Shown: piece by piece, positions 1,081 through 63,399 of the stretch
Position numbering within the stretch: the first letter of the stretch is position 1
Layout: each line of letters begins with the position of its first letter
Source: Ginglymostoma cirratum
Lineage: Eukaryota
DNA length: 64,000 nucleotides
Direction of reading: 5' to 3'
Assembly (NCBI GenBank): GCA_024137785.1
Contig: JAHRHZ010000023.1
Coordinates: 4,976,087 to 5,040,086, forward strand
Made by a program: the position numbers and the translations under genes
The notes under the pieces: generated by a model
Seen by the model: the letters and a program-made list of their open reading frames with translations, nothing else
Databases searched by the model: none
Told to the model about the DNA's origin: nothing

Positions 1081-1396
1081 CAACAAAAACAATGTTGGTG
1101 GAAAAGCTCAGCAGGTCTGGCAGCACCTGTGAAGGATAAAACAGAGTTAATGTTTCAGGTCTGGTGACCCTTCTTCAGAACAGATAGTGGCTGGGAACAC
1201 ATCAGTTAATATGCAGAAAATAGGGAGGTGGGTGGGTCCACCTTTTCCCAGCCACCATCCGTTCTGAGGAAGGGTCACTGGACCCAAAATGTTAACTCTG
1301 TTTTCTCCTTCACAGATGCTGCCAGACCTGCTGAGCTTTTCCAGCAACTTTGTTTTTGTTCCTGATTTACAGCATCCGCATTTCTTTCAGTTTTTA
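1081..1396. mobile_element. Non-autonomous PLE-derived foldback element with two head-to-head hammerhead cassettes
   Basis: About 1083-1200 is inverted relative to about 1243-1360. Flanked by the imperfect 14-bp direct repeat CTCGCTATTACATA (1067-1080) / CTTGTTATCACATA (1397-1410). Confidence 0.8.
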
Positions 1397-1562
1397 CTTG
1401 TTATCACATAGCCTGCCATTACACACTATCTATTGTTAGTAGCTATTAATAGTTGTTATCTATTAACAACTACTCACCCTCCTAGCCGGATCGTTATCAA
1501 TTCCTTTGACTATCCAACTGCTCTTCTCACTCTTTGGGCTCTATCCTATCCTATCCTATCAT

Positions 1563-1905
1563 GGGCAGGCAATACCCTCGTGGTATTATTGCTGGACTGT
1601 TAATCCAGAGACCCAGATAATGTTCTGGGGACCAGGGTTCAAATCCCGACATGGCAGATGATGGAATTTGAATTCAGTAAGTAAATTCAATAAATTGCGA
1701 ATCTGAATCCATTGTCGATTGTCGGGAAAAACCCATCTGGTTCACTTCCTTTAGGGAAGGAAACTGCCATCCCTACCTGGTCTGCCCTGCATGTGGCTCC
1801 AGACCCACAGCAATGTGGTTGATTCTTAACTGCCATCTGGGCAATTAGGCATGAGCAATAAATGCTGCCTAGCCAGCGACATCCTCATCCCATGAATGAA
1901 CAAAG
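1563..1905 (+). mobile_element. tRNA-derived SINE, family B (3' tail shared with an L2/CR1-group LINE)
   Basis: B-box-like GGTTCAAATCCC, body AAAAACCCATCTGGTTCAC..TTTAGGGAAGGAAACTGCC, tail GCAATAAATGCT..CATCCCATGAATGAA. Many copies in the window. Confidence 0.85.
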
Positions 1906-2477
1906 AAAACAAATTACTCCCTATCTCGTGCCCCTCCCTATTTGCCGCATATAAATCAACGTTTTCCCAGCTACCATCAGTTCTGAGGAAGGGTCACTGG
2001 ACCCGAAATGCTGCCAGACCTGCTGAGCTTTTCCAGCAACTCCTGTTTTTGTTCCTGATTTACAGCATCCGCAGTTCTTTTGGTTTTTCTTGTGGTTTTT
2101 ATTTAGTCTTGGACAGAACACCTGGCACTCACTAACAAAAGTGAAGCTTCCACAGAGCGTTGGAGTCTCATGACATTTAAAGGAGGCTCTAGAAGGACAT
2201 TGTGAAGGTGTTACTCAGTTTTTATATTGACTCTGAGGCCTGGCAAAAGCTTGGCCAGGATTGCTGCTCCTGGGTAAAACCAAATAAAAACTAGTATGCT
2301 CAGTCTGAAAGCACGCACATATCAGAGGCAAAGAGGAGATTACAAACCAGCATCTCATCCAGAACACAGTTGTCTGCACTATCCTATCTACATTGCAATA
2401 GAACATTCCAGGTTAAGATCAGCTTTAGCGGTCAGTGACACACCTACTGAAATCAGATCAAACATGACTGATAACAG

Positions 2478-2616
2478 TTCTGAGGAAGGATCACTGGACC
2501 CGAAATATTTACTCTGATTTTTTCTTCACAGATGCTGCCAGACCTGCTGAGCTTTTTCAGCAACTTCTGTGTTTGATCCTGATTTATGGCATCCTGAGTT
2601 CTTTTGGTTTTTATTT
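2478..2616 (+). mobile_element. 139-bp PLE-derived hammerhead cassette insertion
   Basis: Begins TTCTGAGGAAGGATCACTGGACCCGAAA. Exact 14-bp TSD ATGACTGATAACAG at 2464-2477 and 2617-2630. Confidence 0.88.
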
Positions 2617-3582
2617 ATGACTGATAACAGACGTGGTCATCTTTAAGAGGTAAATGGGGTTATCGGAAAATTCTCTTAGTGTCCTGAACCAACATTTATC
2701 TTCAACCAACATTAATAAAGCACATCATATGTTCATTTTCTTGTTGCTGTTTGTTGCATCTTGTGTTGTTCAGACTGGCTGCTCCACAATAGTGCCAATA
2801 CTTGGGAGTACATTATTGTCTGTGAAACACTTTAAGAAATCCTGAAGGTATGAAAATTGTGATATAAATGCATGTTGTATTTTTACTTACCTCATTGATT
2901 CCTTGAACAGTGAGCTCGAAATTTCTCAAATCAAGGCACTGAACTAATGCAAGGTGCTGCCCTACTAAACATGGGAACATCAGCTGGCAGCAAACTCAGG
3001 ATATTGGCAGCTAATTACAGGGTGGCACTAACACTAGCAGAAGCCTGGAAGCTAATTTGAAGTTTTGTTGAAGAAGCTGTGGTCGATGGTAGAAGACAGA
3101 CAGCTATGATTTGTGATATTTGAACTAGTTCACTGGCTTACTGTTTATTATCAGCACATACCCCCACACAGGAGTTAGTCAACAGATACAGAGGTTATTT
3201 TAGAAAATAATGGGGGAGCATTCAGAAATTAATTCAGAGAGATTTGAAAAGATTGTGCAGACGATGGCTGTACATAAGCAAACCCCTGAAGAAGGGGAGA
3301 ACAGGAATTCCTGTTAACAACGCACTGATTTGCCAAGTGAACACTGCATAGTGTTGGATTGGTTGAGATTTTATTTTGTCACCAATTAATTCAAGGTTAG
3401 GAACAGTGGATTGATTCTGTGTGTAACTGAATCTGACCGTCAGACAAGAGAGAGCTCTCTACATCTGTTCTAAAATGATTCTCTTCACAACCTAATAACT
3501 CAGCCAATCAATTGTAAATATTTCTGAACTAAGGGGGAAGGGGAACTTTCAAAATATCAGATTAATGCACGTGAAGCATGGA

Positions 3583-3950
3583 GTTGATGTAGTGTAGTGG
3601 TATTGTCACTGGATTAGTAACTCAGCAGCCTGGGCTAATAGTCCATGGACACAGGTTCAGATCTCACCACGGTAACTGGTGAAATCTAAATTCAATCAAT
3701 TGTTAAAAATCTGGAAATGAAAGGTGATCTCCATCACGGTGACCATGTCATGATTGTTGTAAAAACCCATTACAAACATCCTTTAGGGAAGAAAATCTGC
3801 TGCCCTTACCTTGTCTGTCCTACGTGTGATTCCAGACCAGCACTGTAATTGACTCAGCTGAGCATGACACTCTGTTTAGGGGCAACTAAGGATGAATAAT
3901 GAATTCCTATCCCTGACAATGATACCTGCATCACGTAAAAGATTTTTTTA
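3583..3950 (+). mobile_element. tRNA-derived SINE, family B, diverged
   Basis: Colinear similarity to 1563-1905 (GTAAAAACCCAT, CCTTTAGGGAAG). Confidence 0.75.
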
Positions 3951-4477
3951 AAAAAAGAAGACAAGTTATAAACTGAGAACTATTGGTTTTAATTCTCTTG
4001 TAATTCAATCTTCATCCAGATTAACTACCAGTTGCAACTACACAAATAACACTTAGCTGTAGCAGTGATATTAGAGGCTTCAGTTCAGTGCTGATATTCT
4101 TAAATCAAACCTCTAAGTTATGAACGTTTACATCTCAGATCAGCTCACTGTAGCTGCAAAAAGTCCCACAATCCTTGCTTTAAAATAATACCGTGTACTA
4201 TATATGATTTGTGCAAACTCCTCTTTATGAGTTGGGGGTGGGATGGGAAGTTGGTTTGTTGAGTTAATTAAGTGACTAGAGTGTGGTGCAGAATATAAAT
4301 TGATAGTTTGAGTTCTAAGCTGACACCAGCTATGGTAGTTCATAGAGATGGTGTCTTTACACCTGACCCTACACTTGTTGAGTGGTCATACACCAGCTGT
4401 ATCAGTTATTTCTCTCAATAGTAGATAAATTATTGTGGTTCCTCACCTCCTGTCCAGCATAACCCAAAAGTGACAGG

Positions 4478-4648
4478 ACTGTTATGGTGCAGTGGTAGTG
4501 TCCCTACCTCTGAACCAGCTAGGTTCAAGTTCCACCTGCCCCAGATATAGGCAATAGCATACTTTTGAGCTAGGAGGGCTGGGTTCGATTCCCACCTACT
4601 CCAGAGTTGTGTCGGAATTTCTCTGATCAGGCTGCTTAAACATATCTA
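4478..4648 (+). mobile_element. Short tRNA-derived SINE with duplicated B-box portion
   Basis: TGGTGCAGTGG A-box and two B-box-like motifs (GGTTCAAGTTCC, GGTTCGATTCCC). A related inverted copy lies at about 10285-10395. Confidence 0.6.
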
Positions 4649-5740
4649 AGATAAAAGCAAGGCAGGATGCCAGCTGCAAACTGGGGGGGAATTTTCCTCT
4701 GTAAAACTGCTCTTCCTTGATGTGTGGTTGAGAGTTCAGAGTCCTCTTGATTCTGTTACTGAGACACAGTCAGAACACTGAACAAGTGAGAACCTTCAAC
4801 CTTTTAGACAGGTTTGTGGAGGAAATGTAAAAGCTTCATTTTCAGAATGTAATTTATAGATGGGATTTGATTAAAAGATGTTTTGGGTCCCAGCTAGATT
4901 ATTGCCTATAGAACAATCAGACCGCCTGCCTGATTATATTGCAATCGTTTAAAGAGGTCGAAATGTAATTTCTATCACAACTTAAGAGTTTGTGGGTTGG
5001 AGCTAACCCGGGGCTGTGGGAATCAGCAGCCCAGGGCCATGTTACCATCTGAAGGTAATGTTACTGTTTCCACACTTTCATTTTACTAGTTTACGTGCAT
5101 TTGTTATAAGATCTGGTTAATGTCAGGCTTCTTCAGAGGGGAACAATCAGGAATGAATGTTCTCACTGCATTGGTGCTGAACTCAGGCTTTCTGAAATAG
5201 AAATCCAGCTTCAGGTTTGATGCTAACTAAAATGTTGCTGATTATTTAGGGTGTATCAATAAGATCAGTGACACCCCGCTCCCCCTTAAGGAGGATGAAG
5301 CTCCCAGTGGTGGGCCCACTCCCCCACTTTGGAGAGGGGTTTTCAAATAAACTGGGAGAATGTGTGAAACGGTTTGCGAGCTGGCGTCGGGACTCCCCAG
5401 CCAGTAAAACTCTGAACTCAGTGTAGCTTCGGATCAGAATCTTGGCGGAATCTGGAGTGGCTTTGTGCTAGAGTTTAAATCGCAGGGCTACAGCTGCAGG
5501 TGACGTGAGGAAGTTTTGTTTACTGTCTGCTCTAAAAGTGGCCGCCGCATTGTGGGTCGAACGGCCTCCGGACAACGCGGCGTCTGTCCGAATACAGCAT
5601 TTTAAAGAACCGTTTGAAAAACAGGTCAAAAGACGGAATCTGTTGGCCGTGTGAACACCTCGCATTATGACAGCTGCTCCATCTAAATGTGTTCCGTGTT
5701 TGCAGCCATTGCCTCTTTAATTGTGAGAGCTCAGTCTGGG

Positions 5741-5778
5741 CTCTCTCTCTCTCTCTCACACACACACATACACACTCT
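5741..5778. repeat. (CT)n(CA)n compound microsatellite
   Basis: Read directly from the sequence. Confidence 0.9.
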
Positions 5779-6089
5779 CAGTCACTCACCCGCGGTTTGT
5801 TCTCACAGCGCCTTCGAGCTATGCTATCCCATATCACTCACCCAAGATGCTAAAGTCCTGGCATCAATTCAGACTTCACCAAATAAGCAAGAGACGCTTA
5901 AACTGAATAGCGTTGACCCAGAAGACGGGCTCTGAGCCACCTTAAAGGATTTGTATCGCCTGTAGAGAAGGCGCAGGGACGGGAGGAGGTTTGTAACTTT
6001 AACACCAGCAGCTCCATTGACTCACGCAAACACGGTTTATTTCGCTGGACCCCCTGTGGGAATGGGCTGCAGTCTCTGAGCTCTCAGAG

Positions 6090-6319
6090 TATACCCGGAC
6101 TACAATTCTACAGTACACCCGGAGTCTGCAATCTTAGAATACACCGGGAGTCTGGAATCTCGCAATACATCCAGAATCTCGCAATACATCCAGAATCTGC
6201 AATCTCAGAATACACCCGGAGTCTGCAATCTCGCAGTACACCGGGAGTCTGCAATCTCACAATACACCGGGAGTCTGCAATCTCGCAGTACACCTGGAGT
6301 CTGGGATCTGTCAGTACAC
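6090..6319. repeat. 26-bp minisatellite, about 9 copies (TACACCSGGAGTCTGCAATCTCRSAR)
   Basis: Units start at about 6090, 6114, 6140, 6166 (short), 6185, 6211, 6237, 6263 and 6289. Confidence 0.92.
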
Positions 6320-6565
6320 ACACCAGGAGCCAGCACTGTTTGGATTCGGATTAAACTGGCATTTGGCAGCAGCGGATGTCTCTCGGACCCTCGCCAGTGC
6401 CACCGGGCTGTTAGATGCCAGGATAAAGGCAGGCACTGACCCAGCTCCCAGCTTCAGAGCTGTGCCCACGTGGAAGGTGGAAGACAGAGCCCGGAGACCG
6501 AGCCGCAACTTGGCGAACAGGAGGGAGACGGAGAGAGGACGGGGGTCCTGTGGCCGGTGAGGGGG

Positions 6566-6604
6566 ATGAGGCGCTTGCTGCCGCCCAGAAGAGGATCCGC
6601 CTGA
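6566..6604 (+). other. Candidate upstream ORF (MRRLLPPRRGSA*)
   Basis: ATG at 6566 with G at -3, TGA at 6602-6604, ending 46 nt before the main ATG. Assumes this region is transcribed. Confidence 0.45.
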
Positions 6605-9547: not shown

Positions 9548-9640
9548 CTGATGAAGGGTGACCCAAAACATTAACTCTGTGACTCTCTCCACAGCTGCTG
9601 CCAGACCTGCTGAGTTTCTGCAGCACTGTCTGCTGTTGTT
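9548..9640 (+). mobile_element. 93-bp PLE-derived hammerhead cassette insertion
   Basis: Begins at CTGATGAAGGGTGACCCAAAACATTAACTCTG. Exact 15-bp TSD TCTGGCTGTAAGAAG at 9533-9547 and 9641-9655. Confidence 0.85.
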
Positions 9641-15869: not shown

Positions 15870-16553
15870 GCTCAACCCAAGTTGGAGGAATAGCATCACA
15901 TGGGGTGGCACAGTGGCTCAATGGTTAGCACTGCTGCTTCACAGTGCCTAGGAGCTAGGTTCAATTCCATCCTTGGATGACTGTCTGCATTGGTTTCCTC
16001 TGAATGCTTTGGTTTCCTCCCACAGACCAAAGATGTGCAGGTTAGTTGGATTAGTCATGGGAAATGCAGGATTACAGGAATGAGGGGAGGCTTTGGAGGG
16101 TTGGTGTGGACTTGATGATCCATGCTGTAGAGTGTTCTATGACCTCATCTTCTACCTAGACATCTTACAGCCCTCCAACATTGAGTTTAACAATTTCAGA
16201 TCATGAACACCTCCCCACACCCCCAGGTCCTGTTACATACAGGTTGCTCCCAGCACGGTTACCCCATTTTCAAGTATTCACATTTCCAGTCAGCGCCTTT
16301 CAGCATTTATCCCTCTCTGGACTTGACATCAACAGTCCCTTTTCTGCTTCTTTTCTCCCTCTGTCTCTCTCTCTGGGCATTAGCCCCATCTATTCAGCTT
16401 GTTCCGTACTGTCCCCGGTCATTAGTATAAAAAGCCTTTTCCAGCTGCTTTCAATTCTGATGAAGGGTCACTTGACTCGAACCATTAACTCTGTTTTGTT
16501 TTCAGCAGATGCTGTCAGACCTGCTGTGTTTTACCAGCAATTTCTGTTTTGGT
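15870..16553 (+). mobile_element. PLE 3' end with degenerate hammerhead cassette (about 16455-16495), interrupted by a SINE
   Basis: ORF-end remnant (CAAGTTGGAGGAA..CCTCATCTTCTACCTAG..TTTAACAATTTCAGA) and CTGATGAAGGGTCACTTGACTCGAACC. Confidence 0.7.
15905..16143 (+). mobile_element. tRNA-derived SINE, family A (HE1/V-SINE-like)
   Basis: GGCACAGTGGCTCAATGGTTAGCACTGCTGCTTCACAG head, AAAGATGTGCAGGTTAG core and CR1-like tail. Confidence 0.85.
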
Positions 16554-17179
16554 ATGAACAATTATACAGCTTTGTTATGTATCTTTTACCTATGTTCCCA
16601 ATGACCTTAAATCTTTTAGCTTCTTTGATTCAAAGTAATTAAATCTACTATAGAGGACTAGTTAGGAATGGAATCACTTTATTTTGTCAGTACAATTTGT
16701 ATATGCAAATAATACAAAGTAATGAACAGGCCACCTCTCCCCATATCAGTGCTTGATTAGAACAAAATATATTTGCTGAAAGCTTGCTTTCCATTTAAAA
16801 CTTGACTATCTGCCTCTGCTTTTTCAAGCTTTTTTGTTTACAAGGAAAAATAGCATATGCCAACCAATGCGTGCTTCATACCCAGGTTGAGAAATCTTCC
16901 AACTCAGTGCTTCTTAGTTATTTAGCAATTATAAGATAAATTAACAAATTTTTCATTGTTTACGGTCCGCGAGGAAACAAATTCAAAGCCTGATAAATTT
17001 AACATTTTAATCGCCTTTTTGGGTTTATGTGAATACTCCTGCTTTAAAATTACAAGGAAATGAAAGTTACTAGCAGTACAGTGAGGTGAAAATGGGGACG
17101 TATTCCTATATTGTAGCAATATTGTATAAGGAAGAGATTTAGGATAAAAGTACTGTTGGATGATGGAATTCCAATATAA

Positions 17180-17620
17180 ACCAGGCAGTGCTGGAGAAAC
17201 CTGGCAGGTCTGGCAGCGTCTCTGGAGAGAAAAACAGTTTCAAGTCTGATATGAGTCTTGTTTAGAACTAATGGGCCTGGAAAGCAGAGGTTTTTGTGCT
17301 GTTGACAGAGGGGAGGAGAGCAAGTAGAACAGATGGTGAGGATGCCCAGGAGAAGAGACAAAGTGTTTGAGCTAATGGTGGTAAAAGAGCATGGATATTT
17401 AAAATAAGTGTCAAATGGAGTACATAGGTCTAGTCTGCTGAGCGATAAATTAAGCAAGATACAAACAAGAAGTAGCCCATGGGGGTGACGGTGTGTGGGG
17501 GATGAGGTAAGAAAAAAATTGAAGGAAGAGGTCATGTCGTGAATTGTGGAACTCAGTGTTGAGTCATCGAGGTTCTAAAATGCCTAAACAAAAAAAAGTA
17601 AGATGGTGTGTTTAGATGTT
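17180..17620 (-). mobile_element. PLE 3' terminal fragment
   Basis: GCTGGAGAAACCTGGCAGGTCTGGCAGC cassette followed by a purine-rich UTR and an ORF-end remnant. Confidence 0.65.
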
Positions 17621-30879: not shown

Positions 30880-31055
30880 TGGAGCAAGCCAGTAACCTCA
30901 TCCTCATCATCTGCTCTCCCCACCCTCCATTTACAGCATTAAAAGGAAAGCTCCTTTCAGTGTTGAAGAACAGTCACATTGGAAATGAAATGTTAACTCT
31001 GAATCTCTCTGCACAGATGCTGCTAAGCTTCTCCAGCAGTTCCTGTTTTTGTAAC
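30880..31055 (+). mobile_element. Degenerate PLE terminal cassette
   Basis: TTGAAGAACAGTC..GAAATGTTAACTCTG..CACAGATGCT..CTCCAGCA. Confidence 0.6.
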
Positions 31056-31627: not shown

Positions 31628-31858
31628 TAAGAGATAAAAGGTACTGCAGATGCTGGAGAATCCGAGATAACAAGGCGTGGGGCTGGATGAACACAGCAGG
31701 CCAAGCAGCATCATAGGAGCAGGAAAACCTGACGTTTCGGGCCTAGACCCTTCATCAGAAATGGGGGAAGGGAAGAGGGTTCTGAAATAAATAGGGAGAG
31801 AGGGGGAGGCGGATAGAGGATGGATAGAGGAGAGGATAGGTGGAGAGGAGGGTTAGGG
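31628..31858 (-). mobile_element. Young PLE-derived short insertion carrying an intact hammerhead core
   Basis: Exact 14-bp TSD TTAGTTATTTAGTA at 31614-31627 and 31859-31872. CpGs are retained. Confidence 0.88.
31728..31761 (-). ncRNA. Minimal type I hammerhead ribozyme motif
   Basis: The minus strand reads UUU-CUGAUGA-A-GGGUCUAGGCCC-GAAA-CG-UC-AGG: complete core, stem II, palindromic ACGU stem III and GUC cleavage triplet. Activity is not shown. Confidence 0.75.
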
Positions 31859-32587: not shown

Positions 32588-32847
32588 AACCAGAAATTGC
32601 TGGAGAAACTCTGCAGGTCTGGCAGCATCTTTGGGAAGAAAGCAGAGTTACTGTTTCAAGACCAGTGACTACATCAGAACTGATAGTACCTAGGAAAATG
32701 TGATATTTATGCTGAAGGTGAGGTTTAGGGCGGTGGGACTCGAAACGTTAACTTTGCTTTCCTCCCACAGGTGCTGCCAGACCTGCTGAGTTTCTTCAGC
32801 AATTTCTGTTTTGTTTAAGATTTCTACCATCTACAGTTCTTTGTTTT
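32588..32847. mobile_element. PLE-derived foldback element
   Basis: About 32583-32660 is inverted relative to about 32742-32815. TSD AGCTTGGCTAACAA (32574-32587) / AGCTCAGCTAACAA (32848-32861). Confidence 0.82.
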
Positions 32848-33124: not shown

Positions 33125-34975
33125 ACAGAAGATGTCAATGATAATCACAGAATTGTTGTGCAGAAGGAGGCCACCTGACCCAACTCTCGAAATGAACATT
33201 TTACTCAATACCATACTCCCACCTTCTCCATAGAACCCTGCCCCATCTTCCTTTTCAGTTCACAGTTTAATTCTGCTTTGATTGAACCTGCCTCCAGTAC
33301 ACTCAGCCAGTGCATTCCAGACACTAACCATTTGCTGACACAACAAGGTGCAGAGCTGGATGAACACAGCAGGCCAAGCAACATCAGAGGAGCAGGAAAG
33401 CTGATGTTTCAGGCCTAGATCCTTNNNNNNNNNNNNNNNNNNNNNNNNNNNNNNNNNNNNNNNNNNNNNNNNNNNNNNNNNNNNNNNNNNNNNNNNNNNN
33501 NNNNNNNNNNNNNNNNNNNNNNNNCCTTTTTCATCTCCAGTGAAAGCAGTCCTAACTTTTCCAATCTATCTGTGTTGCTGAATTCCTCATCCCTGGAACC
33601 ATTCTTGTGAATATTTGCTATGTCCTGTACAGTACCTTCAAATCCTTCCTAAAATGTGGTACCCAAAACTATGTCCAATGCTCCAACTCAGGCTGAACTA
33701 GTGTCATGTACAAGCTCAACATAACCTCATTGCAATTTTACTTTATGCCTCCTTGAGTAATGTCTAGAAATCTGTATATTTTAATAACTGCTCTCTCAAC
33801 TGGTCCTGCCACCTTCAATGACTAATGCACCCAGGTCTCACTGTTCCTGCACTTCTTTCAGAATTATGCCCTATATTTTACATTGTCCCTCATGTTCTAC
33901 CTACCAAAATGAATCTCTTCATATTTCTCTGCATTGACCTTAATCTGTCACCAGTCTGCTCATTTCACCAAGGTTTCTATGTCAATTCCAAGTTCTACAC
34001 CATCTATATTACAGTTCACAAGGCTTCCAGGTTCTGTTTCATCCTAAGACTTTGAAAATGGGCCTGTTCACCAAGGTCTATTCATTCATATGTATCAGAA
34101 AAAGCAAGTATCCAACACTAACCCCTAAACAGCTCAATTACAAACCTTCTTCCAGCCCAGACATCACCCATTAACCAATACCAGAAGATCATAAGATATT
34201 AGGAGCAGAATTAGGCCATTCGGCCCATTGAGTCTGCTCCACCTTTCGACCATGGCTCATATATTTCTTAACCCTATTCTCCTGCCTTCTCCCTGTAACC
34301 CTTGATCCCCTTCCTAATCAAGAACCTATTTATCTCTATCTTAAATACACTCAATGACTTGGCCTCCACAGATTTATGTGGCAGTGAGTACCACAGAGTC
34401 ACCACCCTCTATTCCTCCTCATCTCAGTTCCAGAGTGTTGTCTCTTCGTTCTGAGGCTGTGCCTTTAGGTCCTAGTCTCTCCTACTTGTGAAAACATATT
34501 GTCCATGCCCACTCTATCCAGGCTTATCCACTCTATCCAACTTATTCTGTCAGTTTCAATCAAATCCCCCCCACACCCTTCTAAACTCCATGGAGTGCAG
34601 ACCCAGGGTCCTCAACTGCTACTCATATGACAATTCATTCACACTCTGTTTCCTGTCACTCAGCCAATTTTATATCTGTTTTGCTACTGTGCCTTTAATT
34701 TCTTGAGTTCAAATTCTGCCCACAAGTCTGTTGTATCAAGTGGCTTTTTGAAGTCCATGTACACCACATCAGCAGCATTTGTCTCATTAGCCCCCTCTGT
34801 TATCTGTTTCAGGAAACTCCAGTAAGTAAGCATAATTTTCTGTTAAGAAGTCTACCCTGGCTTTCATTAATTAGCCTGCATTTGTCCACATGGTTATTAA
34901 TTTTGTTGTCGACTATTCTTTGTAGAAGTCTCCCCGCTGTTGAAATGAAACCAACTGAGCTGGAGTTGCTGGATT
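33125..34975 (-). mobile_element. Decayed CR1 fragments with a nested CR1 3' end (34185-34640), a PLE cassette (33340-33424) and a gap
   Basis: CR1 nucleotide motifs (CCTTCCTAAAATGTGGTACCCAAAACT, GGAGCAGAATTAGGCCATTCGGCCC, TTTTTGAAGTCCATGTACACCACATC). Confidence 0.72.
33425..33524. other. Assembly gap (100 N)
   Basis: Run of N. Confidence 1.
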
Positions 34976-38695: not shown

Positions 38696-40459
38696 CGACG
38701 TTAGTTCCAACAAAAGCCAAATTGGGCTTAAAGTGTCAACTCAGTTTCTTCCTCCTCCAAAGGTACACAGCTGCTGAGTTTCTGTAGCACATTCTGTTTT
38801 AATTTTAGATTTTCAGCATTCAGAGTAGTTTGCCCTGGGAGTTTACAATGAGCTGTTGTAATACTCAGCATATTAAGAAAGAATTGTTATTGATCTCATC
38901 TTGAAAATAATTTGTAAGCTGCTCATGAATTGCATTTTTGGAGACTGTTTTGTGTAAATTCTGACATTTCATAAATAGATATTGGCATATCTACCAACTA
39001 TGCTAGTTTGGGGAGAGAAAGAACATTGTTTGCCTTAATAATATAACAATAAAACAAAGAGCTGCGGATGCTGAAGATCTGAAACTAAAACAGAAATTGC
39101 TGGAGAAACTCAGCAGGTCTGACAGCATGTCCTGTGACCTGGTTACCTTCCCTTGTTTGCACCGTTCAATGTTCCATTTGTGTCTTTTCACATTCATTAT
39201 TTAATGTTGAACCACTGCTTGATAATGCAATCAGAAAAAAAACAGCTGAGAAGACCTTTGCCTTTTTCTGCTCATTTGATTCAGACTAAGGACATTTCAG
39301 GCATAGAAAGCAGGAATCCTCCTATAAAAGCACACAAAACCCCTCAAATACAGCAGTTCAGAGATGCAGCACAGCTATACTACACAGTTAAAAGCCTTTA
39401 AGACGAGGAAACTACAACAGCATTGCAGTTCGTCAGAATTGAATGCCTTTCAGAGAATCAAGCTAAAGCATCATTGCTTTACTGCAGAGTTCCAAGTCTT
39501 TCAGGCAAAGGAAGTAAAGCAAGTGAGACGGTATAAAATTGAAAAGCCTTAAAGTAAAATTAATATATGATCACACTTGGAAAAATAGCAGCAGGGATAA
39601 TATAACCAGAAAGAGATAATTTGAAATAGGCCAAATAGAACATAGAATTGAATAGAAAGCAAAAATGCTGAAATCACAGCAGGTCAGGCAGCATGAGAGC
39701 AAGCTGAGGTTTCAATATTAGATGACTCTTCATCAGAACTCAATAGAATTAGACATCTTCGAGAAAACCATTCTTAAGATATAGAATTGATTCCATATTA
39801 GATGTTAACTCTACAGTTGGATAAGTGAACAAGTGTAACAGTTGTTATATTCAGTTGGGACTATGGATGATGACATTACTGTTCGCCATGGCATAAATGT
39901 AAAAATATGCTTTAGATGAAGTCCTACAAGTTTTGACAATTACTTTAATCTTAGAACAAATAAAATTCTTGTAAAAGCAAGATTTAACAAGAGTTCAGAG
40001 ATAGTAAGGCCTGCCAATGCTGGAGTCAGAGATAACACAGCGTGGAGCTGGAGGAACACAGCAGGCCAAGCAACATCAGAAGAGCAGGGAAGTTCAGTTT
40101 GGATAGATAGATAATTTCATTAATGATCTCCACAGATTAGTAGCAGAAAACTTATATGGTGCTATAAAATCAGAATTCCTAAGAGACAAGATTGTTGTTG
40201 AAATTAATGTTGAATCTTTGTCAGATTAATTATAGTCCAAAGAAGAATTGACTTTGGGGAAAGTCAATCATTTATCGAGGAAAATGGGAAGTCCAGAAGC
40301 AGCATCAATTAATCCTAAGGGAAGAAAACTAACCTTATCATAGGAGATCTGCAGAATCCATTCAGTTCGTGAGTTAACAAAACCCTAAAGACACAGTGAG
40401 AAGCCAGTGCAGAGAGTAGGTACACACACTAACTAAGAGTCAGTTCCAACACTGTCGAG

Positions 40460-49242: not shown

Positions 49243-51110
49243 AATATCCAAAAGGTGACATCTCAGATCAGGCACTGAATTATAGGTGTGAGGCTTTGTT
49301 CATAATCTGTGTAGAGTTTTAATCTGGAATCAGGCTGGTTTATTCCGAATGCTGAAATTTTTAAGATGCTACACTGACTGACTGTGACTACAAATTGTGT
49401 GCTTTTTGAATAAAATAGAATGTATCTGCAAATAAACAAGCTTCTTGGACGAAATGATTCACCCCATAGATGTGTGTGTGTGTGTGTGTGTGTGTGTTTT
49501 TGTGAGAGAGAGTGTGCGCGCACGTGCGTGTGTGTGAAGGAGCATGTGTGTGAGTGTGTGTGTGGACACACACATCTCCATCAAGGACAGACACCTCAGT
49601 ACCTCACTGTACTGCAAGCCCATGGATAACCTCATGATGCTGCACTTCTCCAGCTTCCATCCTAAACGTATTAAAGAAGCCATCCCCTAAGGACAAGCCC
49701 TGCACATACACAGGGTCTGCTCAGATGTGGAGGAATGCAACGGACACCTGAAGGTTTTGAAAGACACCCTCATAAGAACGGGATATGATGCTCAACTCAT
49801 TGATCACCAGTTCCAATGTGCCACAGCAAAAAACGCAACAACCTCCTCAGAAGACAGACACAGGACTGATAGGGTACACGTCATCATCTAGTACTTCCCC
49901 GGAGTGCAGAATACACATCATGTTTCTCGTAGCCTTCAACTTGTCATCGATGACGGTGAGCATCTGGCCAAGATCCTCCCCGTGCCACCACTTCTCACCT
50001 TCAAACATCTGACAAACCTTAAACAGACCATTTTTTGCAGCAAACTACCCAGCCTTCAGGACAACATTGACCACAACACTATACAACCCTGCAATGGCAA
50101 CCTCTGCAAGACATTTTAGACCATCGACATGGACACTACCATCACATGTGCGAACACCAAACCACGTGCACAGCAGATACCCATGTGACTCAGCCAATGT
50201 TGCCTATCTCATACGCTTCAGGCAAGGATGCTCTGGGGTATGGTATATTGGCGAAATCATGCAGATGCTATGACAAAGGATGAATGGAAACCGTGCAACA
50301 ATCGCCAGACAGGAATGTTTCTTCTCAGTCGGGGAACACTTCAGCGGGCAAGGGCATTCAGCCTCCGATCTTTGGGTAAGCGTCCTCCAAGGCGGACTCC
50401 AAGATACACAACAACGCAGAATCATCGAGCAGAGACTGTTAGCCAAGTTCCATACCCTCAACTGTGCTCTTGGTTCATGAGGCGCTACAGGTGACCCCAC
50501 CGTACTGTTCTGTATCAGTAAAGTCTTCCTTACTGTTCTGTCTACCTTGATTAGTTTGTACAGTTTTGAATTACTTATTACACACTTTCTCACACACACA
50601 CACAAATCTATGGGGTGAATCATTTCATCCAAGATGTTTGTTTATTTGTAGATACATTCTATTTTGCTCAAAAAACACACAATTTGTAGTCACAGTCAGT
50701 CAATGTGGCATCTTATAAATTCTAGCTTTCAGAATAAAGCCAGCCTGATTCCAGATTAAAGCTCTGAGATGGATTCTGAACAAAGCCTCACACCTACAAT
50801 TCAGTGCCCGATTTGAAATGTCACCTTTTGTATATTGCCTATGGCTCTGCCTCAATGTCATGACAGCACAGCACTGACATTGACTTCAGAAACACTCTTG
50901 GTCACCTGCACAGACTTATCTGACACTCCATTCACACTAGTTGTATGATCTTTCGATCTCCCTGCCCTTGATCTCTCTGCCTGTAAACTCTGTGTCTGTC
51001 TGCCCTGCTCTCTCACTGCATCTGATGAAGGGGCTGTGCTCTGAAAACTTGTGTGATTCCAATTAAACTTGTTAGACTACAACCTGGTGTCATGCAACTT
51101 CTGACTTTCT
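49243..51110 (+). mobile_element. 5'-truncated Penelope-like element (second family) with an inverted 5' copy of its 3' UTR and a terminal hammerhead motif
   Basis: LYCKPMDNLMMLHFSSFHP..YPCDSANVAYLIRFRQGCSGVWYIGE..VGEHF..RRIIEQRLLAKF (GIY-YIG). 49243-49510 is inverted relative to about 50585-50838. CTGATGA at 51022. Confidence 0.9.
51019..51053 (+). ncRNA. Minimal hammerhead motif, stem III degenerate
   Basis: CAU-CUGAUGA-A-GGGGCUGUGCUCU-GAAA-AC-UU-GUG. Confidence 0.55.
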
Positions 51111-52285
51111 TCACTATCTTAGAGCAGCAGGCGTCCATCTGCATCAGGTACAAAAAGTTTGTGGTGTTATCAAAGATAAATCTGTGACCATTGAGGCAAA
51201 AGATTTCTGTTCCTCTTGAATCAGCATTTGATGTTCCTCACCTTTCACTTGCTTGCATTGAATGAAGAGGAGACAAAGAACGACTTGCATTTCTGTAGCG
51301 CCCTTCATAACCTCAGGCTATCCCAAAGCATTACAGGTATTTAGGTACTGTTAATGTATAATCACCTCAATTTAAGAAACGGTGGTCAGTTTATAAGCTC
51401 TCATGTACGACATTAAACAATTGACTGCTTTCTGAGTGATATTGAGGGATACATTTAGCTAAGACACTGGGGATATCTGTTCTGCTCTTCTCAGAATAGT
51501 ATTCCCTGAGAAACAAAAACAGAAATTGCTGGAGAAACCCAGCAGGTCTAGCAGCATCTATGGGGAAAGAAAGCAGAGTTAACGTTTCAAGTCTAGGGTG
51601 ACTTTTCTTTAGAACTGAATGTTGGGTACCAAAGATGCCTCTAAACTGAGCACTCTGAAAATGTTGTACTTGTTAGAATTGTTGTAACACCAAAGACAGA
51701 CCCTCAGCCTGACACACCCAGTCCAAACAAAGCTAGCTCTCAATTTCAGAATTATTAAATGAATTCAGATGCTATGGTGGGATTTGAACCCGTGGCCCCA
51801 GAACATTAGCCTGGACATCTGGAATGCTAGTCCAGTGACCCCATTGCTGTCCACACATGATGTTCTGTGGCTTGTGTATCCTGTGGATGCGGAAGGGGAC
51901 ATGACACAAGAGAAAAACACTGCTAACACCATGTTTAGAGCCAGCCCATTGCTTCAGTATTTCCTGCTGCCTCTTACTCATGGTGACAAGAATATCCAAG
52001 ATCTTAAGTATAGGGGCATCATAGATTTGGGATCCCTGAGTTCATCTGTATTTTTCTTAATGTTCTTTTTTATTCATTCATGGAATGTGGGTGTTGCTGG
52101 CTGTATCGCCCGTCCCTAGTTGCCCATGAGACAATGGTGATGAGCTGCCTTCTTCAACCACTGCCATCCATATGCTGTAAGTTGACCCAGAATATCATTA
52201 GGGAGGGAGTTCCAGGATTTTGACCCAGTGAGAGTGATGGAATTGCATGTTATCTTGTGCCTGCAGAGCAATAATGTTGAGCTAT

Positions 52286-52879
52286 AAGTTCAGAAATCAA
52301 ACGACGCCAGGTTGTAGTCCAACAGGTTTATTTGAAAACACAAGCCTTCAGCCAGAGCTTTGCTCCTTCTTCAGGTGTCAGAGAGAGAGATTGTATCAGA
52401 CACAGAATTTATAAGTAAAAGATCAAAGGGTCACATTCACTGATGAGGATGTATTAAACAAACCTAAGATGATGTTAAATCTTTAAATAGTTAGAAGGTT
52501 TTAATTGATTAATATGTATATGTAAATCCCCAAATTCCTTTCAAGTCACTGTCCTGAGAGAACTAAAGATTTTACCGGTGTAAAGAAGGGGTGATATTTT
52601 AGGCCAGATAATGCAACGCCAGATAATGAGGCGTTGTTTAGAATCAGTTTGTGTTTTGGTTTGGAGTCAGACTTAGGTTTGTTTAATACATCCTCATCAG
52701 TGGTGTGATCCCCTTTGATCTTTTACTTATATTTTCTGTGTCAGATACTAGCTCTCTCACTAACACCTGAAGAAGGAGTGAAGCTCAAAAAGCTTGTGTA
52801 AACCTGTTGGACTATAACCCTGGTGTCCTGTGATTTCTGACCTTCTCGATCCCAGTCCTACACTGGCACCTCCACATCA
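52286..52879. mobile_element. PLE-derived foldback element related to the 3' end of the 49-51 kb PLE
   Basis: 52286-52468 is inverted relative to 52672-52844, and each arm has a CTGAAGAAGGAG..AAG hammerhead remnant. Candidate TSD GAGCTATAAGTTCA (52279) / GAGCTACAGTTCA (52880). Confidence 0.82.
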
Positions 52880-53339
52880 GAGCTACAGTTCACAGGGATG
52901 TGTTAATTGCAATACAGCCTGTCCTTGATGTCAGTTATTGATCAGCAATTGTGTTTCAATGAAGAAATGTGTGAGCCTCTCAGAGAATGTCAATAAATTT
53001 TCATTCGTAAGTTGTCTTTTGAATGTGAGCCACATTGAGGAAAGAGCATGCATTAGATTCCCCTACTGAGCTGTGAGGTTGTGTGACAGCTTAGCATAGG
53101 TGAACAAAAGTGGAACAAGTTGCCAGGCAACAGTTTACGGCAACACTTTGGTACTTAATGCTTGTTGGATAGTCTCATCACGCTCTAAATTCTTTAAAAT
53201 AGGTTGTCTGCTCCTACATCTGTTCACAGCTCCTGAAGGTATGCTCACTTTGTTGAGTCTGGTTGGCTTGTGCCAGGCATGGCACACTGGACTTCTAAAG
53301 AGAGTTGTTTGAAGTCAAGCCCAAAGAGTCAAGCCCCTT

Positions 53340-54749: not shown

Positions 54750-55710
54750 AGAATGCTGCAGAAACTCAGCAGCTCTAGCAGCATCTGTGGAGAGAGAGAG
54801 ACAGTGTTAACATTTCTCTACCCCTCATTTTTTGATAAATTTCCATCAGGCCGCCTCTTAACCTCTTATGCTCCAGTGAAAAAAGTCCAGCCTTTCTTTA
54901 TAACTCAAACCTTCCATACCCGGCAACATCCTGGTACCTCTCTTCTGAACCCTCTCCAGAACTGTATTGGAAAATGGGTTTTTATATTTCTGAGAGAGGG
55001 AAGTGTGGTGCAAGAGACAAAGGGGTTGTTATTGGTGGAGAAAGAAATTCTCACAGTGTAGTCTCCTTTATAACAGGCAGGACCAACTCGACTGGGCGAC
55101 TGTTTTGTTGGTGACCTCTGCTCTGTCCATTGGAATGACCCTGACCTCCCAGTTACCTGCTATTTCAATAAACCATCTTGCTCCTGTGTGAACATTTCTG
55201 TCCTGGGCCTCCTACACCGTTCCAATGAAAGCTAAATCCAAGCTTGAGGAGCAACACCTCATTTTCTGCTTAGGTATTTTACAGCCTCTTGGGTTCAATA
55301 TTGAATTGTATGACATCAGAAACTGAGTGCATTGTGTCTGTTGTCATTTTTCTTACATTCTGTCCCCTCTGCCCCTCCTCATGGTCTTGTCTGGTTTGTG
55401 TCTTGTTTACTTCACTCTTGGTACAGAGGACCCATTCTCTCCCTTTCGTACCTCAATGTACTCCCATTGTACATTTCTCTTTCTCATTCTCCGCCATGAA
55501 CAGCCCTTTTGTCTTTTGTGCTGGGTCTCTTCCTCTGTCAAAAGTTTATATAAAAGCAACATTTTCCAACACCATTCAGTTCTGAAGAAGGGTCACTGAA
55601 CTCAAAATGTTGACTCTGTATCTCTGTGTATAGAAGATACCAGACCTGCCATTGTTTTTTCCAGAATTCTCTGTTTGTTTCCCATTTCCAACATCCGCAG
55701 TACTGTGCAT
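54750..55710. mobile_element. PLE remnant: inverted terminal cassette, GIY-YIG end, 3' UTR and hammerhead remnant (55578-55618); CR1 piece inserted at 54845-54960
   Basis: CAAGCTTGAGGAGCAACACCTCATTTTC ORF end and CTGAAGAAGGGTCACTGAACTCAAAATGTTGAC. Confidence 0.72.
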
Positions 55711-56055: not shown

Positions 56056-56427
56056 TGACATGTTTCAGTGTAGATGGATGGATAACTGGAATTCCATATC
56101 AGCTGAGAGCCGGTGGCAGTGGTTGGTTCTGGTCATTCTGGGGATGTCCCAAATAGCCTGGGGGAGAAAATGGGGTAGATGTTTAAAGACCAAAAATGAT
56201 CTTACCTTAACTTTGCTACACCAAGCTAAAGATACCAATTTTTAATTCCAAAAAGGGCCCCCACCTGTAGTAATAAGTAGCTTTTTGAAAGAAGTGGGAT
56301 CACTGAGCATCAATGATATTTTCAGACAACGTGTTTCATCCTCAGTTCATTTATTGGCTATCCATCTTTTATGTAGTCTTCAACCAACTCCATTGTTCTG
56401 AATCTCTAAAAGCTAGACATCTGATGG

Positions 56428-56635
56428 AAAACAACAAATGCTGGAGATCATAGCAGGTCAGACAGCATTCGTTGAGAGAGAGCAAGCTAACATTTTGAAT
56501 CTGGATGACTCTTCATCTAGACTTGAAACATTAGCTTGCTCTCTCTCTCTCCATGGATGCTGTCTGACCCGCTGTGATCTCCAGCATTTGTTGTTTTCAG
56601 GACAGATTCCAGCATCTGCAGTAATTTGCTCCTCT
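56428..56635. mobile_element. PLE-derived compact foldback element
   Basis: 56428-56495 is inverted relative to about 56525-56596, and the two arms are fused at the hammerhead stem II. Confidence 0.8.
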
Positions 56636-56771
56636 GTCTGACTGTTTGTCAGAACCTAGCATCTGCTGTTTGTTTCATTCTGTTTCAGTGCAACTGTGGA
56701 TTTTGTTAAACTGGGCCCAGTTATTGGAAGCTGTCTGTTAAAGAATGAAGATGCTTAGCAATGTTGTATTG

Positions 56772-57644: not shown

Positions 57645-57980
57645 GCGGCATGGTGATTAGCACTGCTGTCTCACAGCGCCAGGGACCAAGGTTTGATTCC
57701 ACCCTCAGGTGACTGTGTGGCGTTTGCACGTTCTCCCCATATCTGTGTGGGTTTCCTCTGGGTGCTCCGGTTTCCTCTCACAGTCCAAAGATGTGCAGGC
57801 TAGGTGGATTGGCCAGAGGAAATTGCCCGTCGTGCCCAGGGATGTGTGGGTTAGCCATGGCTAATGCAGAGTTACAGGGATAGGGTAAGGGGTTGAGTCT
57901 GGATGGGATGCTGTTTGGATGGTTGGTCTGGACTCAATAGACCGAATGGGCTGCTTCCACACTGTAGAGATTCTATGATT
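57645..57980 (+). mobile_element. tRNA-derived SINE, family A
   Basis: Head, core and tail motifs. Confidence 0.9.
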
Positions 57981-58688: not shown

Positions 58689-58805
58689 AAGTATTCATTT
58701 TACAAAATCTTGAAGGATAGTTCACTTAAAGGTTTTTGAGCAGATTAGTAACTCAGGTTGGTTGATGTAGTTATTGACTTGCTTGCCAAGCTGGTAAGTT
58801 TGTTT

Positions 58806-58845
58806 GCAAACGTTTCATCACCGTGCTGGGTAACGTCATCACTGC
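58806..58845 (-). ncRNA. Minimal hammerhead motif of a further PLE family (C3 mutated)
   Basis: The minus strand reads GCA-gUGAUGA-C-GUUACC cagcac GGUGAU-GAAA-CG-UU-UGC. Confidence 0.55.
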
Positions 58846-58884
58846 GTCTCCGGTTAATTCACTTTACCTAGGACTAAATATCAT

Positions 58885-59321: not shown

Positions 59322-59596
59322 GGGGTGGCATGGTGGCTCACAGCGCCAGGGACCTGGGTTCGATTCCACCCTCCAGTGACTGTGTGGAGTTTGCACATTC
59401 TCCCCGTGTCTGCGTGGGTTTGCTCCGGTTTCCTCTCTCAGTCCAAATATTTGCAGGGTCGGTGGATTGGTCAAGCTACATTGCTGATAATGTCCAGGGA
59501 TGTGTAGGCTAGGTGGATTAACCATAGGAAATGTAGGATTACAGGGATAGGGTTGTGGGCGGTGTGGATGTGATGGGCAAATGGCCTGCTTCCACA
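59322..59596 (+). mobile_element. tRNA-derived SINE, family A
   Basis: GGTTCGATTCC B-box, core and tail. Confidence 0.88.
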
Positions 59597-59599
59597 ATT

Positions 59600-59958
59600 C
59601 TTTATTCGTTCACGGGATGAGGGCGTTGCTGACTGGGCAGCATTTATTGCCCATCCCTAATTGCCCAGAGGGCAGTTCAGAGGCAACCACTTTGCTGTGG
59701 GTCTGGAGTCACATGTAGGCCAGACCAGGTAAGGATGGCAGTTTCCTTCCCTAAAGGACATTAGTGAACCAGATGGATTTTTCCGACAATTGACAATGGA
59801 TTCATGGTCATCATTAGATTGTTAATTCTAGATATTTATTGAATTCAAATTCTACCATCTGCTGTGGCAGGATTCGAACCCAGGTGCCCAGAGCATTTTT
59901 TTGGGTCTCTGGATTAACAGTCCACTAGGCCACTAGGCCACTAGGCCATTGCCTCCCC
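59600..59958 (-). mobile_element. tRNA-derived SINE, family B, tail-to-tail with the family A copy
   Basis: Full-length copy with an internal (CCACTAGG)3 slippage. Confidence 0.9.
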
Positions 59959-61285: not shown

Positions 61286-61356
61286 AGGACAAGGACAACA
61301 CCACCATCTGCAAAATCCCCTCCAAGCCCTGCACCATCCATATTTGGAAGTATATT

Positions 61357-61561
61357 AAATAAAAACCGAAAGAACTGTGGATGCTGTAAATCAGAAACAA
61401 AAACAGAAATTGCCCAAAAGCTCAGCAGGTCTGGCAGCATCAGTGGAAAGAAGTCAGAGATAACATTTTGAGTCAGGTCATCCAACCCGAAACGTTAACT
61501 TTGCTTTCTGTCCACAGATGCTGCCAGACCTGCTGAGTTTTTGCAAAAAATTCTGTTTTGT
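61357..61561. mobile_element. PLE-derived foldback element
   Basis: About 61398-61468 is inverted relative to 61489-61563. TSD TTTGGAAGTATATT (61343-61356) / TTTGGAAACATATT (61562-61575). Confidence 0.8.
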
Positions 61562-62033
61562 TTTGGAAACATATTGCCGTTTGTTCATCATTTCTGGGTT
61601 AAAATGGTTCCCTTGCAGCACACCAATTAGAGTGACTAATAGGTGACTAACCATCACCTTCTCAAGGACTATTAGGGAGGACCATTCACTGACACCCACC
61701 TCCCATGAACAAATAAAATAGATGATTTTCCCACACTCATGGGCATGCAACTTTAACTTTATAACTCTATTAAAATAATCCTACACCTGTCAATGTTGTG
61801 ATGTTTCCTCAGATTGATTTTGTGACCATATTAACTAGGAATTACCTATCTAAGCCCCTTCCCTTTGTGGAGTTATAATAGTGACACATGAAGCTGCTGT
61901 GCTGGAATAAAGCTCACTGCAAGTGTAGTGTGTTGTGAGGCAAGGACTCTCGTTAGGGAAATGAGGTGAAATGACTGATTGCACCCATTTGCAAAGTCTG
62001 CAATTACACAAAAATGATCCTTGATTTTCTTTT

Positions 62034-62123
62034 CAGAGAAGGGTTTAGGCCCGAAACGTCAAGTTTTCCTGCTCCTATGATGCTGCTTGACCTGCTGTGT
62101 TCATCCAGCCCCATGCTTGTTAC
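62034..62123 (+). mobile_element. 90-bp PLE-derived hammerhead cassette (same family as 31628-31858), 5' core broken
   Basis: GAAGGGTTTAGGCCCGAAACGTC. Exact 15-bp TSD CCTTGATTTTCTTTT at 62019-62033 and 62124-62138. Confidence 0.85.
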
Positions 62124-62454
62124 CCTTGATTTTCTTTTTCTCAGTTGGCTAATGTTTGTCACAAATCATGATTGTAAGAATATTCCTGTGGATTTGTACT
62201 AATCCCTTCCAACTCTCTGGTGATCTCCAACAAATCCACAAGGATGTCCTTGGTGTTTGAATGTGAAGCACAGTTCTAAGTTTGTGAGTGATTCAACAAA
62301 CCACAGCAAAGACCCATCGACAAGGTGGATGGGGAAAGCTGTTACAGTGTGCTTGTGTGTAAACAGCCTTCTGAACTTGCCAGATTCAAGGAGATTAACT
62401 CTATCTCGAATCACCCTAGTGGGACTGCAAGTGTGGGCAGTAGGCATGCCAAAT

Positions 62455-62925
62455 TCTGCAAAGCAGAGGAACTTTACCAGAATGTTACCAGGGCTTGAAA
62501 ACTGCAGCTCTAAGGAAAGCTTGGACAGGCTTCATCGTTGTTTTCCTGAGAATAGGGGAGACGGAGAGGGGACTTAATTGGAAGTGTACAAAGTAACAAA
62601 GGTAGGCTGGACATGTTTCCCTTTGGGAGAGAGGTCAAGTACCGGCGCCGAGGGGGGAACAGATTTAAGGTGATGGGCAGAAGGATTCAAGAAGCCATGA
62701 GGGAAAGCTGTTTCACCCAGAGGGTGGTGGCCATCTGAAATTTGCTATCCCAGTTTTGGGGGTTGAGGCAGAAATCCTCAACTCACTTAAAAGGAACCTG
62801 GATCTGCTCCTGAAGCTCTGAAGCCTTTGAGGCAATGGACTAGACGTTGCAAAGTAGCGTTAGAATGGGTGCCTAGTTTATTCAGCTGGTACAGGCATAA
62901 GGGGCTGAATGGCCTCTTTCTGACC
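62455..62925 (+). mobile_element. CR1 LINE 3' fragment
   Basis: QRNFTRMLPGLENCS; TTTCACCCAGAGGGTGGTG; GGGCTGAATGGCCT. Confidence 0.82.
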
Positions 62926-63399
62926 TTGTCTGGTATGAACTGAGTCTCCAGTAAGTGGCTGCAAGGACAGGCCTGCTGGGTCAGGATGGATCCCCTTTGT
63001 GAATTATTACCTGCAAATAAATTTCAACCAATCATTGTGGCAGCTGTCTCCCTGCAAAGCCACTTCCAACCTTTCTGGCTAAAAAGGGAAGGTAATTACA
63101 GTGAGAGAGGGGATAGTGTAGGCTGAAACAAGCCTAGGAATTGTTGGAGAAACTCAGCAGGTCTGGTAGCACCTGTAGAGAGAGAAACAGTGTTAACATT
63201 TCCAGCCCAGTGATGACACGACTAATAGTGGAGGCTGACTCTGAATTGTTGAGTACTCTGGGGGGGTCCTGCAATGCATGAACCATTCAAATGGTGACGG
63301 ATCTGAATGGCTGGTGTATGTGATGTCTCATCAAGACTCTTCCTCACTGATGGGCCTTTGATAAGAGAGTTCTGTCTCCACAACATGAAGGACAGTGAT

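Follow-up and report, generated by a model that had tools for sequence, protein, structure and literature searches.

The 64,000-nt stretch of Ginglymostoma cirratum DNA analysed here, hereinafter the window (assembly GCA_024137785.1, contig JAHRHZ010000023.1, forward strand, positions 4,976,087 to 5,040,086), contains a dense population of short repeated cassettes built around minimal hammerhead ribozymes. The cassettes are very probably the pseudo-long terminal repeat (pLTR) and tail ends of several old families of endonuclease-containing (EN+) Penelope-like elements (PLEs), present as truncated copies. Profile models seeded with 17 hand-picked copies found 28 cassette copies, each of which is termed an arm: 18 in family A, four in B, three in C and three in D. 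Paired arms were grouped by hand into insertions, giving 23 insertions in 63.55 kb of called bases, or one per 2.8 kb, in agreement with the density of about one per 3 kb claimed in an initial annotation of this DNA. Cassettes, with boundaries set by hand, occupy ~5.7% of window bases, and 19 of the 23 insertions have no coding sequence. The best profile match in the reversed window has E=0.19. A permissive search for tail-only A fragments, taken to E=5, gave three weak extras (E 0.55-4.6), the same as in the reversed control. Families A, B and D cross-match and have the region 3' of the ribozyme in common, whereas family C does not cross-match. Copies diverge 10-28% from the family A consensus. 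Family E is a single copy at 58806(-), unrelated to families A-D. All 22 positions in the initial annotation fall in real copies, 21 in families A-D and one, 58806(-), in family E. Its list lacked seven arms, namely 38722(+), 39050(-), 39995(-), 54753(-), 63127(-) and the second arm of each junction at 56490 and 61480.

The insertions are as follows, with "short" and "tail" denoting the two classes of 3' end described below.

1..930, minus: inverted left arm of the 930 insertion, with a broken open reading frame (ORF; reverse transcriptase (RT) thumb, Cys linker, GIY-YIG); runs off the window; RT-linked homologues in rays and sharks
930..2095, plus: PLE ORF end, 3' untranslated region (UTR), TATA-like box, hammerhead 1983 and tail; ribozyme 3' half removed by a 27-nt deletion; interrupted by the 1081-1396 pair and a short interspersed nuclear element (SINE) at 1563-1907
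1081..1396: head-to-head pair, A; minus core 1178 with short end, plus core 1264 with tail; duplication 1067-1080/1397-1410
2478..2616, plus: single A arm with tail, beginning 2-5 nt ahead of the core; duplication 2464-2477/2617-2630, 14 bp and perfect
9548..9640, plus: single A arm, short end, beginning at the core; perfect 15-bp duplication 9533-9547/9641-9655
16130..16552, plus: coding relic with endonuclease C-terminal stub, UTR, TATA-like box, hammerhead 16457 and short end; z=16.6 to the 930-1030 ORF end
17146..17283, minus: degenerate A arm with tail, from profile search
30949..31052, plus: degenerate A arm, short end, from profile search
31630..31795, minus: tailed family B arm; the one fully intact minimal hammerhead, core 31758; TATA-like box upstream
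32588..32847: head-to-head pair, A; minus arm short-ended and extending into the UTR, plus arm tailed and beginning in stem II; duplication 32574-32587/32848-32861
33342..33424, minus: family B arm whose 5' end is missing because of an assembly gap
38722..38830, plus: degenerate A arm with tail, beginning in stem II
39050..39132, minus: A arm with tail, the sole arm starting 3' of the cleavage site (+18)
39653..39744, minus: family D arm; core 39736 intact, stem II decayed; two candidate duplications
39995..40095, minus: tailed family B arm without a core
49243..51147: family C coding relic; inverted 3'-UTR arm at ~49243-49560 (minus), broken RT thumb/linker/GIY-YIG, UTR, hammerhead 51022, probable tail
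51510..51624, minus: A arm, short end; core 51612 with one mismatch
52293..52880: head-to-head pair, C; long minus arm, core 52374, short end; plus core 52767 with tail; duplication 52279-52292/52880-52892
54753..54816, minus: short A arm beginning at GAAA, probably not the partner of 55050-55707
55050..55707, plus: coding relic with GIY-YIG C-half, UTR, TATA-like box, hammerhead 55582 and tail; z=35
56427..56652: head-to-head pair, D; five shared bases between core and loop II; candidate duplication 56410-56426/56653-56668
58728..58851, minus: family E hammerhead, core 58842, C3 changed; different stem II; AC-rich 3' stretch; 13-bp duplication found by eye
61357..61561: head-to-head pair, A, joined inside stem II; minus tail, plus short end; duplication 61343-61356/61562-61575
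62034..62123, plus: single B arm, short end, beginning at the core; perfect 15-bp duplication 62019-62033/62124-62138
63127..63224, minus: single A arm, short end, beginning in stem II plus ~11 unexplained bases; 14-bp duplication 63113-63126/63225-63238

The pair within 1067-1410 apparently lies in the 3' UTR of the related PLE relic 930-2095, a self-insertion. The three same-strand cores 1264, 1983 and 2480 are separate events.

The pattern CTGANGA-N12-24-GAAANNTH has six matches in the window (0.78 expected; none of 100 shuffles reaches six), five of them in family arms. A structure descriptor gives three matches with a perfect core, compared with none in 40 shuffles, and seven with at most one mismatch (shuffle mean 0.18). 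A covariance model built from eight arms has 14 matches at E<0.001, all on arms already known, and does not recover families C and E below E=1. It is vanishingly improbable that chance matching or an assembly artefact produced the motifs. The sixth pattern match, 59236(-), does lie outside any family, and an Rfam scan of the window returned six weak matches and no hammerhead. However, the shuffled and reversed controls refute this possibility, and the copies are on average 74% identical to one another and have individual duplications. Four of the weak Rfam matches are to microRNAs; one inverted pair has three of them and another pair the fourth.

Stems I and II are paired in 87% of cells across eight arms, compared with at most 48% in slid controls. 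Three of nine stem pairs show two-sided change, and 2 of 500 shuffles score as high; the eight arms are related members of families A, B and D, and the result is thus supportive and gives no true probability. Pair counts were limited to these arms because C and E came out of register when 17 motifs from the different families were aligned with MAFFT; these two families use other stem pairs than A, B and D. The minimal type I class proposed in the initial annotation is therefore upheld by perfect-core matches above shuffles and by stem covariation. The family A consensus retains the hammerhead core, and the stems covary; a family consensus without the core or without stem II covariation would, according to that annotation, have counted against it.

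Although the motif is retained at the family level, few copies are intact. All conserved core nucleotides are kept in 5 of 28 arms, and both stems, palindrome and core are kept in one, 31758(-), whose lowest-energy predicted fold sequesters the core. The palindrome is A-CG-U in A, B and E and A-GC-U in C, and the palindromic dimer helix III is predicted at just -3.1 kcal/mol. Specifically, the palindrome has lost its CpG in 11 of the 15 A arms where the site was counted (CG 3, TG 7, CA 4, other 1). The CpG over G12 is in a similar state in 16 A arms (CG 5, TG 5, CA 4, other 2). The hand-anchored motif table leaves out rows 17258, 30964, 32676 and 56519. CpG loss in both directions at G12 and in the palindrome is the pattern of neutral decay. 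Family-level minimal type I hammerheads are real, and most genomic copies are dead.

The cassette adjoins broken reading frames in four insertions (930-2095, ~16130-16552, 49243-51147 and 55050-55707). The initial annotation had also described coding relics that end in the cassette; the cassette does end them, but the fourth, at ~16130-16552, had been missed. Its relic 54750-55710 does contain coding sequence and a cassette but is probably two insertions with a LINE-like (long interspersed nuclear element) piece between. The arms 54753(-) and 55548(+) were tried as a sixth head-to-head pair and rejected (identity 62%, rank 15 of 15, the LINE-like piece between the arms), despite a weak candidate duplication at p=0.034.

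In the broken relics, RT is followed by a C-terminal GIY-YIG domain in which two Cys lie between GIY and YIG. The GIY-YIG match to Pfam has E=0.0097, below the Pfam cut-off. Homologues of the relics carry RT and GIY-YIG, and the full-length ones are ~890-950 aa. A stop-free relic piece, 500-832(-), has named relatives in rays and a bamboo shark. Of 47 stored relatives with 860 aa or more, 45 have a Cys linker; the two window relics leave just the first two Cys of the CX2-5CxxC linker readable. This linker between RT and endonuclease is assigned to Neptune/Nematis (PMC8557442), and only Neptune and Poseidon were found among the vertebrate PLEs described by Li et al. (2026, bioRxiv 10.64898/2026.07.22.740005). 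Therefore, the parent elements are probably Neptune-type, an assignment that does not separate Neptune from Nematis. The window holds the hallmarks of EN+ PLEs, namely the RT/GIY-YIG order, target-site duplication, a one-ended tail and an inverted truncated copy, and the PLE origin proposed earlier is supported by the cassettes that end RT/GIY-YIG relics.

With boundaries fixed beforehand, 5 of 21 candidates have target duplications at p<0.02, three of which are perfect 14-15 bp repeats. In a transition-tolerant test of 20 insertions, for which some boundaries had been adjusted after the prior-boundary test, ten have duplications of 13-17 aligned bases at p<0.025. The misses at 16423 and 31626 used boundaries later judged too short. 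Duplications also anchor nine 3' ends of family A, five at 62-69 nt and four at 98-107 nt past the cleavage site, with none between. These two classes, ~36 nt apart, correspond to the PLE "tail", which has been mapped to two reverse-transcription start sites in the Anolis Poseidon element PAc (PMC11167929) and has been ascribed to endonuclease resolution of an intermediate (PMC8557442). Taken with the coding relics and the inverted copies, the duplications and the tail bear out insertion by PLE-type target priming. In families A, B and D, the word CAGCA occurs twice 3' of the cleavage site, each time ~15-30 nt before one class of 3' end. It can pair with an upstream GAUGCUG and is a candidate RT recognition hairpin; single-copy folds are inconsistent.

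A single mechanism could account for these features. The PLE protein would nick both target strands ~14-15 bp apart, and reverse transcription would start at one of two sites, 62-69 or 98-107 nt past the cleavage site, on an RNA template that has not cleaved itself. Synthesis would mostly stop within ~60-170 nt, at or just 5' of the ribozyme, leaving SINE-sized pieces. Where both nicks are primed, two truncated copies would be joined back to back via a few shared bases. The hammerhead would be constrained in active parents and would decay neutrally in inserted copies.

The 5' ends bear on where synthesis stops. They are readable in 27 arms and range from the ORF to +18 past the cleavage site, with 13 upstream of the ribozyme, five at the core, eight in stem II or GAAA and one downstream. 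None of the 27 starts at the cleavage site. Within family A, 17 of 18 arms extend 5' of the cleavage site, none starts there and one starts downstream; in a leave-one-out control, planted fragments starting at +0, +15 and +30 were recovered 18 of 18 times at each cut point. The absence of cleavage-site starts agrees with the result that unprocessed RNA is the main substrate of the anole PLE and that ribozyme mutants still insert (PMC11167929). A share of the short copies may be run-off cDNAs, primed near the 5' end of an mRNA initiated in the pLTR and ending at that 5' end, just ahead of the hammerhead core, a variant of the truncation mechanism and not exclusive of it, which we regard as possible but not as the better bet. 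In its favour, a TATAWAW-like box (at most one mismatch) lies 31-39 nt before the core in seven of nine covering arms, from families A, B and C, against a background of 6% for each 10-nt slot, and a putative initiator (Inr)-like motif overlaps stem I, both by consensus motifs that we take to be standard. The 35-nt ribozyme zone holds 13 of the 27 5' ends, compared with one downstream (0.018 versus 0.001 per nt, p=0.0005, with hand-coded positions), and the 5' landmark at which arms stop is shared by the short and tail classes despite the ~36-nt difference in length. The singles with perfect duplications, 2478, 9548 and 62034, start within ~5 nt of the putative start, and therefore some solos may be run-off products. 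TATA and Inr have also been reported in a rotifer pLTR (PMC3846280). However, 13 of the 27 arms pass the putative start and therefore would come from read-through RNA, eight do not get as far as the start, ending in stem II or at GAAA, and over the following 60 nt upstream the stop rate does not differ from that of the ribozyme zone (p=0.28). The Drosophila virilis Penelope promoter is, moreover, internal and TATA-less (PMC2377424). RT stalling at stem II or at a bound protein explains the 5' ends equally well. Our literature search found no earlier report that 5' ends accumulate at the ribozyme and at a putative TATA/Inr start.

The cassettes could alternatively be true non-autonomous elements, SINE-like or retrozyme monomers, that amplify from their own short or circular RNAs via PLE enzymes. 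The large non-coding majority of insertions, several with clean duplications and of similar size, fits this proposal, as does the finding of retrozymes and monomers in the one chondrichthyan sampled by Li et al. (2026). We nevertheless consider it improbable. Between stem II and the ORF the 5' ends form a continuum, a weakly supported tree intermingles short arms with coding relics, and arms that start at or below the core lack the TATA-like box and therefore are unlikely sources. The fixed 5' end and internal promoter of a SINE are not found, the TATA-like box lying outside the short arms. All motifs in the window are minimal, and none has the helix III and loop-loop contacts of a canonical type I ribozyme. 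None of the 18 Tandem Repeats Finder rows for the window is a hammerhead-bearing repeat. The lack of a tandem array and of cleavage-site starts therefore indicates that the cassettes are not retrozymes in this window. The initial annotation had left two options, retrozyme-like non-autonomous elements and extreme 5' truncations; within the window it is the latter that fits, with 5' ends that vary between the ORF and stem II.

Head-to-head pairs bounded by duplications account for five insertions, and every pair has one tail arm and one short arm. The tail-less arm reaches clearly further upstream in 1081-1396, 32588-32847, 52293-52880 and 56427-56652, and does so in the more parsimonious of two parses of 61357-61561. 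The 930 relic, whose other end is outside the window, conforms, and the 49243 relic probably has the opposite asymmetry (tail match p=0.09, no duplication); the asymmetry holds at best in six of seven cases, with a one-sided p of ~0.06. The bases shared at the junction number five in the D pair, ~4 at 61.5 kb, 2-3 at 32.7 kb and at most ~12 in the C pair, and are unclear at 1.2 kb. Such pairs might arise by self-priming or fold-back of one strand, as has been proposed for inverted PLE arms (PMC3846280), or as perfect palindromes later trimmed by deletion. Junctions on short shared or inverted sequences would suit this origin, and so would endonuclease resolution as the source of the tail (PMC8557442). 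Long palindromes are also prone to deletion. Each arm, however, has sequence missing from the other in four of the five pairs (tail versus upstream reach; the fifth is ambiguous), so plain fold-back is excluded unless later deletion made the asymmetry. Purified anole PLE protein, in addition, cleaves and extends both strands (PMC11167929). On this evidence an origin by fold-back or trimming seems rather doubtful.

The asymmetry would be expected if two primers act on one uncleaved RNA; it and the accumulation of 5' ends at the ribozyme both hint at this, though from small numbers. In a more specific and distinctly speculative version, which we think unlikely to hold in full, a protein dimer would prime both nicks with a single uncleaved RNA as template, using the two start sites; the primer starting at the tail site would trail the inner one and never reach further upstream, the cDNAs would anneal head-to-head, and many solos would be run-off products bounded by a start on stem I. 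In a same-template test of the three true A pairs, an arm's partner ranks between 1 and 7 of 17 and is not consistently the nearest. Among papers available without subscription, our literature search found no report of the asymmetry and none proposing two primers on one RNA for PLE pairs. If this version is true, the density in the window would give a very large natural data set on the unsolved PLE mechanism.

Several observations count against reading the cassettes as truncated pLTR and tail ends. The covariation comes from just eight related sequences, half of the insertions tested have no clear duplication, and several of the boundaries are post hoc. Cassette translations do not match the N-termini of 137 fetched relatives, and a protein search with one cassette frame gave no match. 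Neither a full-length parent nor a direct partial tandem (pLTR-ORF-pLTR) is present in the window, and because no full-length parent is there, the link from cassette to ORF start is lacking. The 3' UTRs of the A relics upstream of the TATA-like box do not align significantly except near the box. Finally, five arms begin within a few bases of the putative start, and a short dedicated transcript could yield the same.

Much of this is already known from other animals. Metazoan minimal hammerheads are described as massive in number, most of them being solo copies derived from truncated PLEs (Cervera and de la Pena 2014, PMC4209133), with opposite-strand pairs 100-700 bp apart, 4,000 copies in coelacanth and 9,000 in Xenopus, and low dimer activity. 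The hammerheads in the window resemble them in being minimal type I, with one unpaired base before stem II, G10.1-C11.1 and a palindromic 15-16 segment, and in occurring as several families per genome, mostly as solo copies and opposite-strand pairs. Stem II has 4-5 bp here compared with 7-8 in Schistosoma (PMC4209133). The passages of that paper considered here name no cartilaginous fish. Three strict matches per 64 kb, if typical, would exceed the 4,000-9,000 per genome of coelacanth and Xenopus, a comparison between different descriptors that extends from one window. The novelty claimed in the initial annotation was overstated, since genome-wide solo minimal hammerheads and opposite-strand pairs are the main result of PMC4209133.

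The insertions likewise resemble those described for EN+ PLEs (PMC3846280; PMC8557442) in 5' truncation, an inverted truncated 5' copy, a one-ended 30-40 bp tail, target duplication, TATA/Inr in the pLTR and microhomology junctions. Other than that, both arms here are often 70-140 nt and duplications are 13-16 rather than 8-10 bp. Anolis PAc (Frangieh 2024, PMC11167929) is similar in its two RT starts defining a tail 3' of the hammerhead, in extension of both strands and in its uncleaved template. It belongs to another clade, as Penelope/Poseidon lack the Cys linker, and its ORF start has been mapped. Family E resembles PAc by layout alone, and the PAc ribozyme sequence was not found in the supplement of PMC11167929. 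Retrozymes of the non-LTR type (PMC7229834; Li et al. 2026) are, like the cassettes, short, non-coding, hammerhead-bearing, PLE-related and dispersed, with long duplications. They form tandem units of ~150-450 bp, typically with canonical type I ribozymes, and circular RNAs, whereas the window has neither a tandem nor a canonical form.

In the whale shark, expanded Penelope-like elements are noted in a preprint, and PMC8455134 lists such elements. Our literature search found no publication that has the PLE hammerheads of sharks as its subject. Publications of 2013-2026 already describe solo PLE hammerheads, inverted copies and one-sided tails, and the window is an elasmobranch example. Its cassettes make up ~6% of the sequence, lie below Rfam detection and are easily taken for SINEs, miniature inverted-repeat transposable elements or microRNA hairpins, which makes their description useful for repeat annotation. 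Their importance would grow should the end patterns hold across the genome, since inverted arms, one-sided tails and the role of the hammerhead are open PLE questions that could then be tested by counting.

Approximately 20 nt 3' of the cleavage site, A arms (e.g. 1290-1316) have a branch-point-like TTAAC, a pyrimidine tract, AG and then ATG. The AG is kept in 15 of 16 covering A arms and is absent in B and D. PLE introns of D. virilis adjoin hammerheads, and the AG near stem I is possibly a 3' splice site overlapping stem I.

The window also holds other repeats. A tRNA-like SINE family of ~350 bp is present at 1563-1907, 3580-3855, 25529-25837, 35338-35656, 48110-48470 and 59598-59958, with a B-box in three of six copies checked. 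A second tRNA-like SINE family, presumably similar to the elasmobranch HE1 SINE, is present at 15900-16117, 26862-27041, 29858-30197, 31112-31466, 38478-38694, 57639-57979 and 59331-59553, with a B-box in six of seven copies. LINE-type RT fragments or related 3' pieces, which we take to be CR1-like, lie at 13554-13988(-), 44280-44630(+), 45000-45500, 53700-53870 and 54813-54959, the first two with Pfam RVT_1 matches. A 292-bp direct duplication with 89% identity (56772-57063/58397-58688) is outside the cassette families.

The exon at 6570-7166(+) is of the Shisa family (Pfam Shisa_N, E=1e-16) and presumably resembles Shisa8/9. The cassettes 3' of it show no strand bias (11 plus versus 13 minus, p=0.84). 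A minisatellite with a 26-bp unit (6082-6319) and a long CA-rich simple repeat (8761-9456) lie near this exon.

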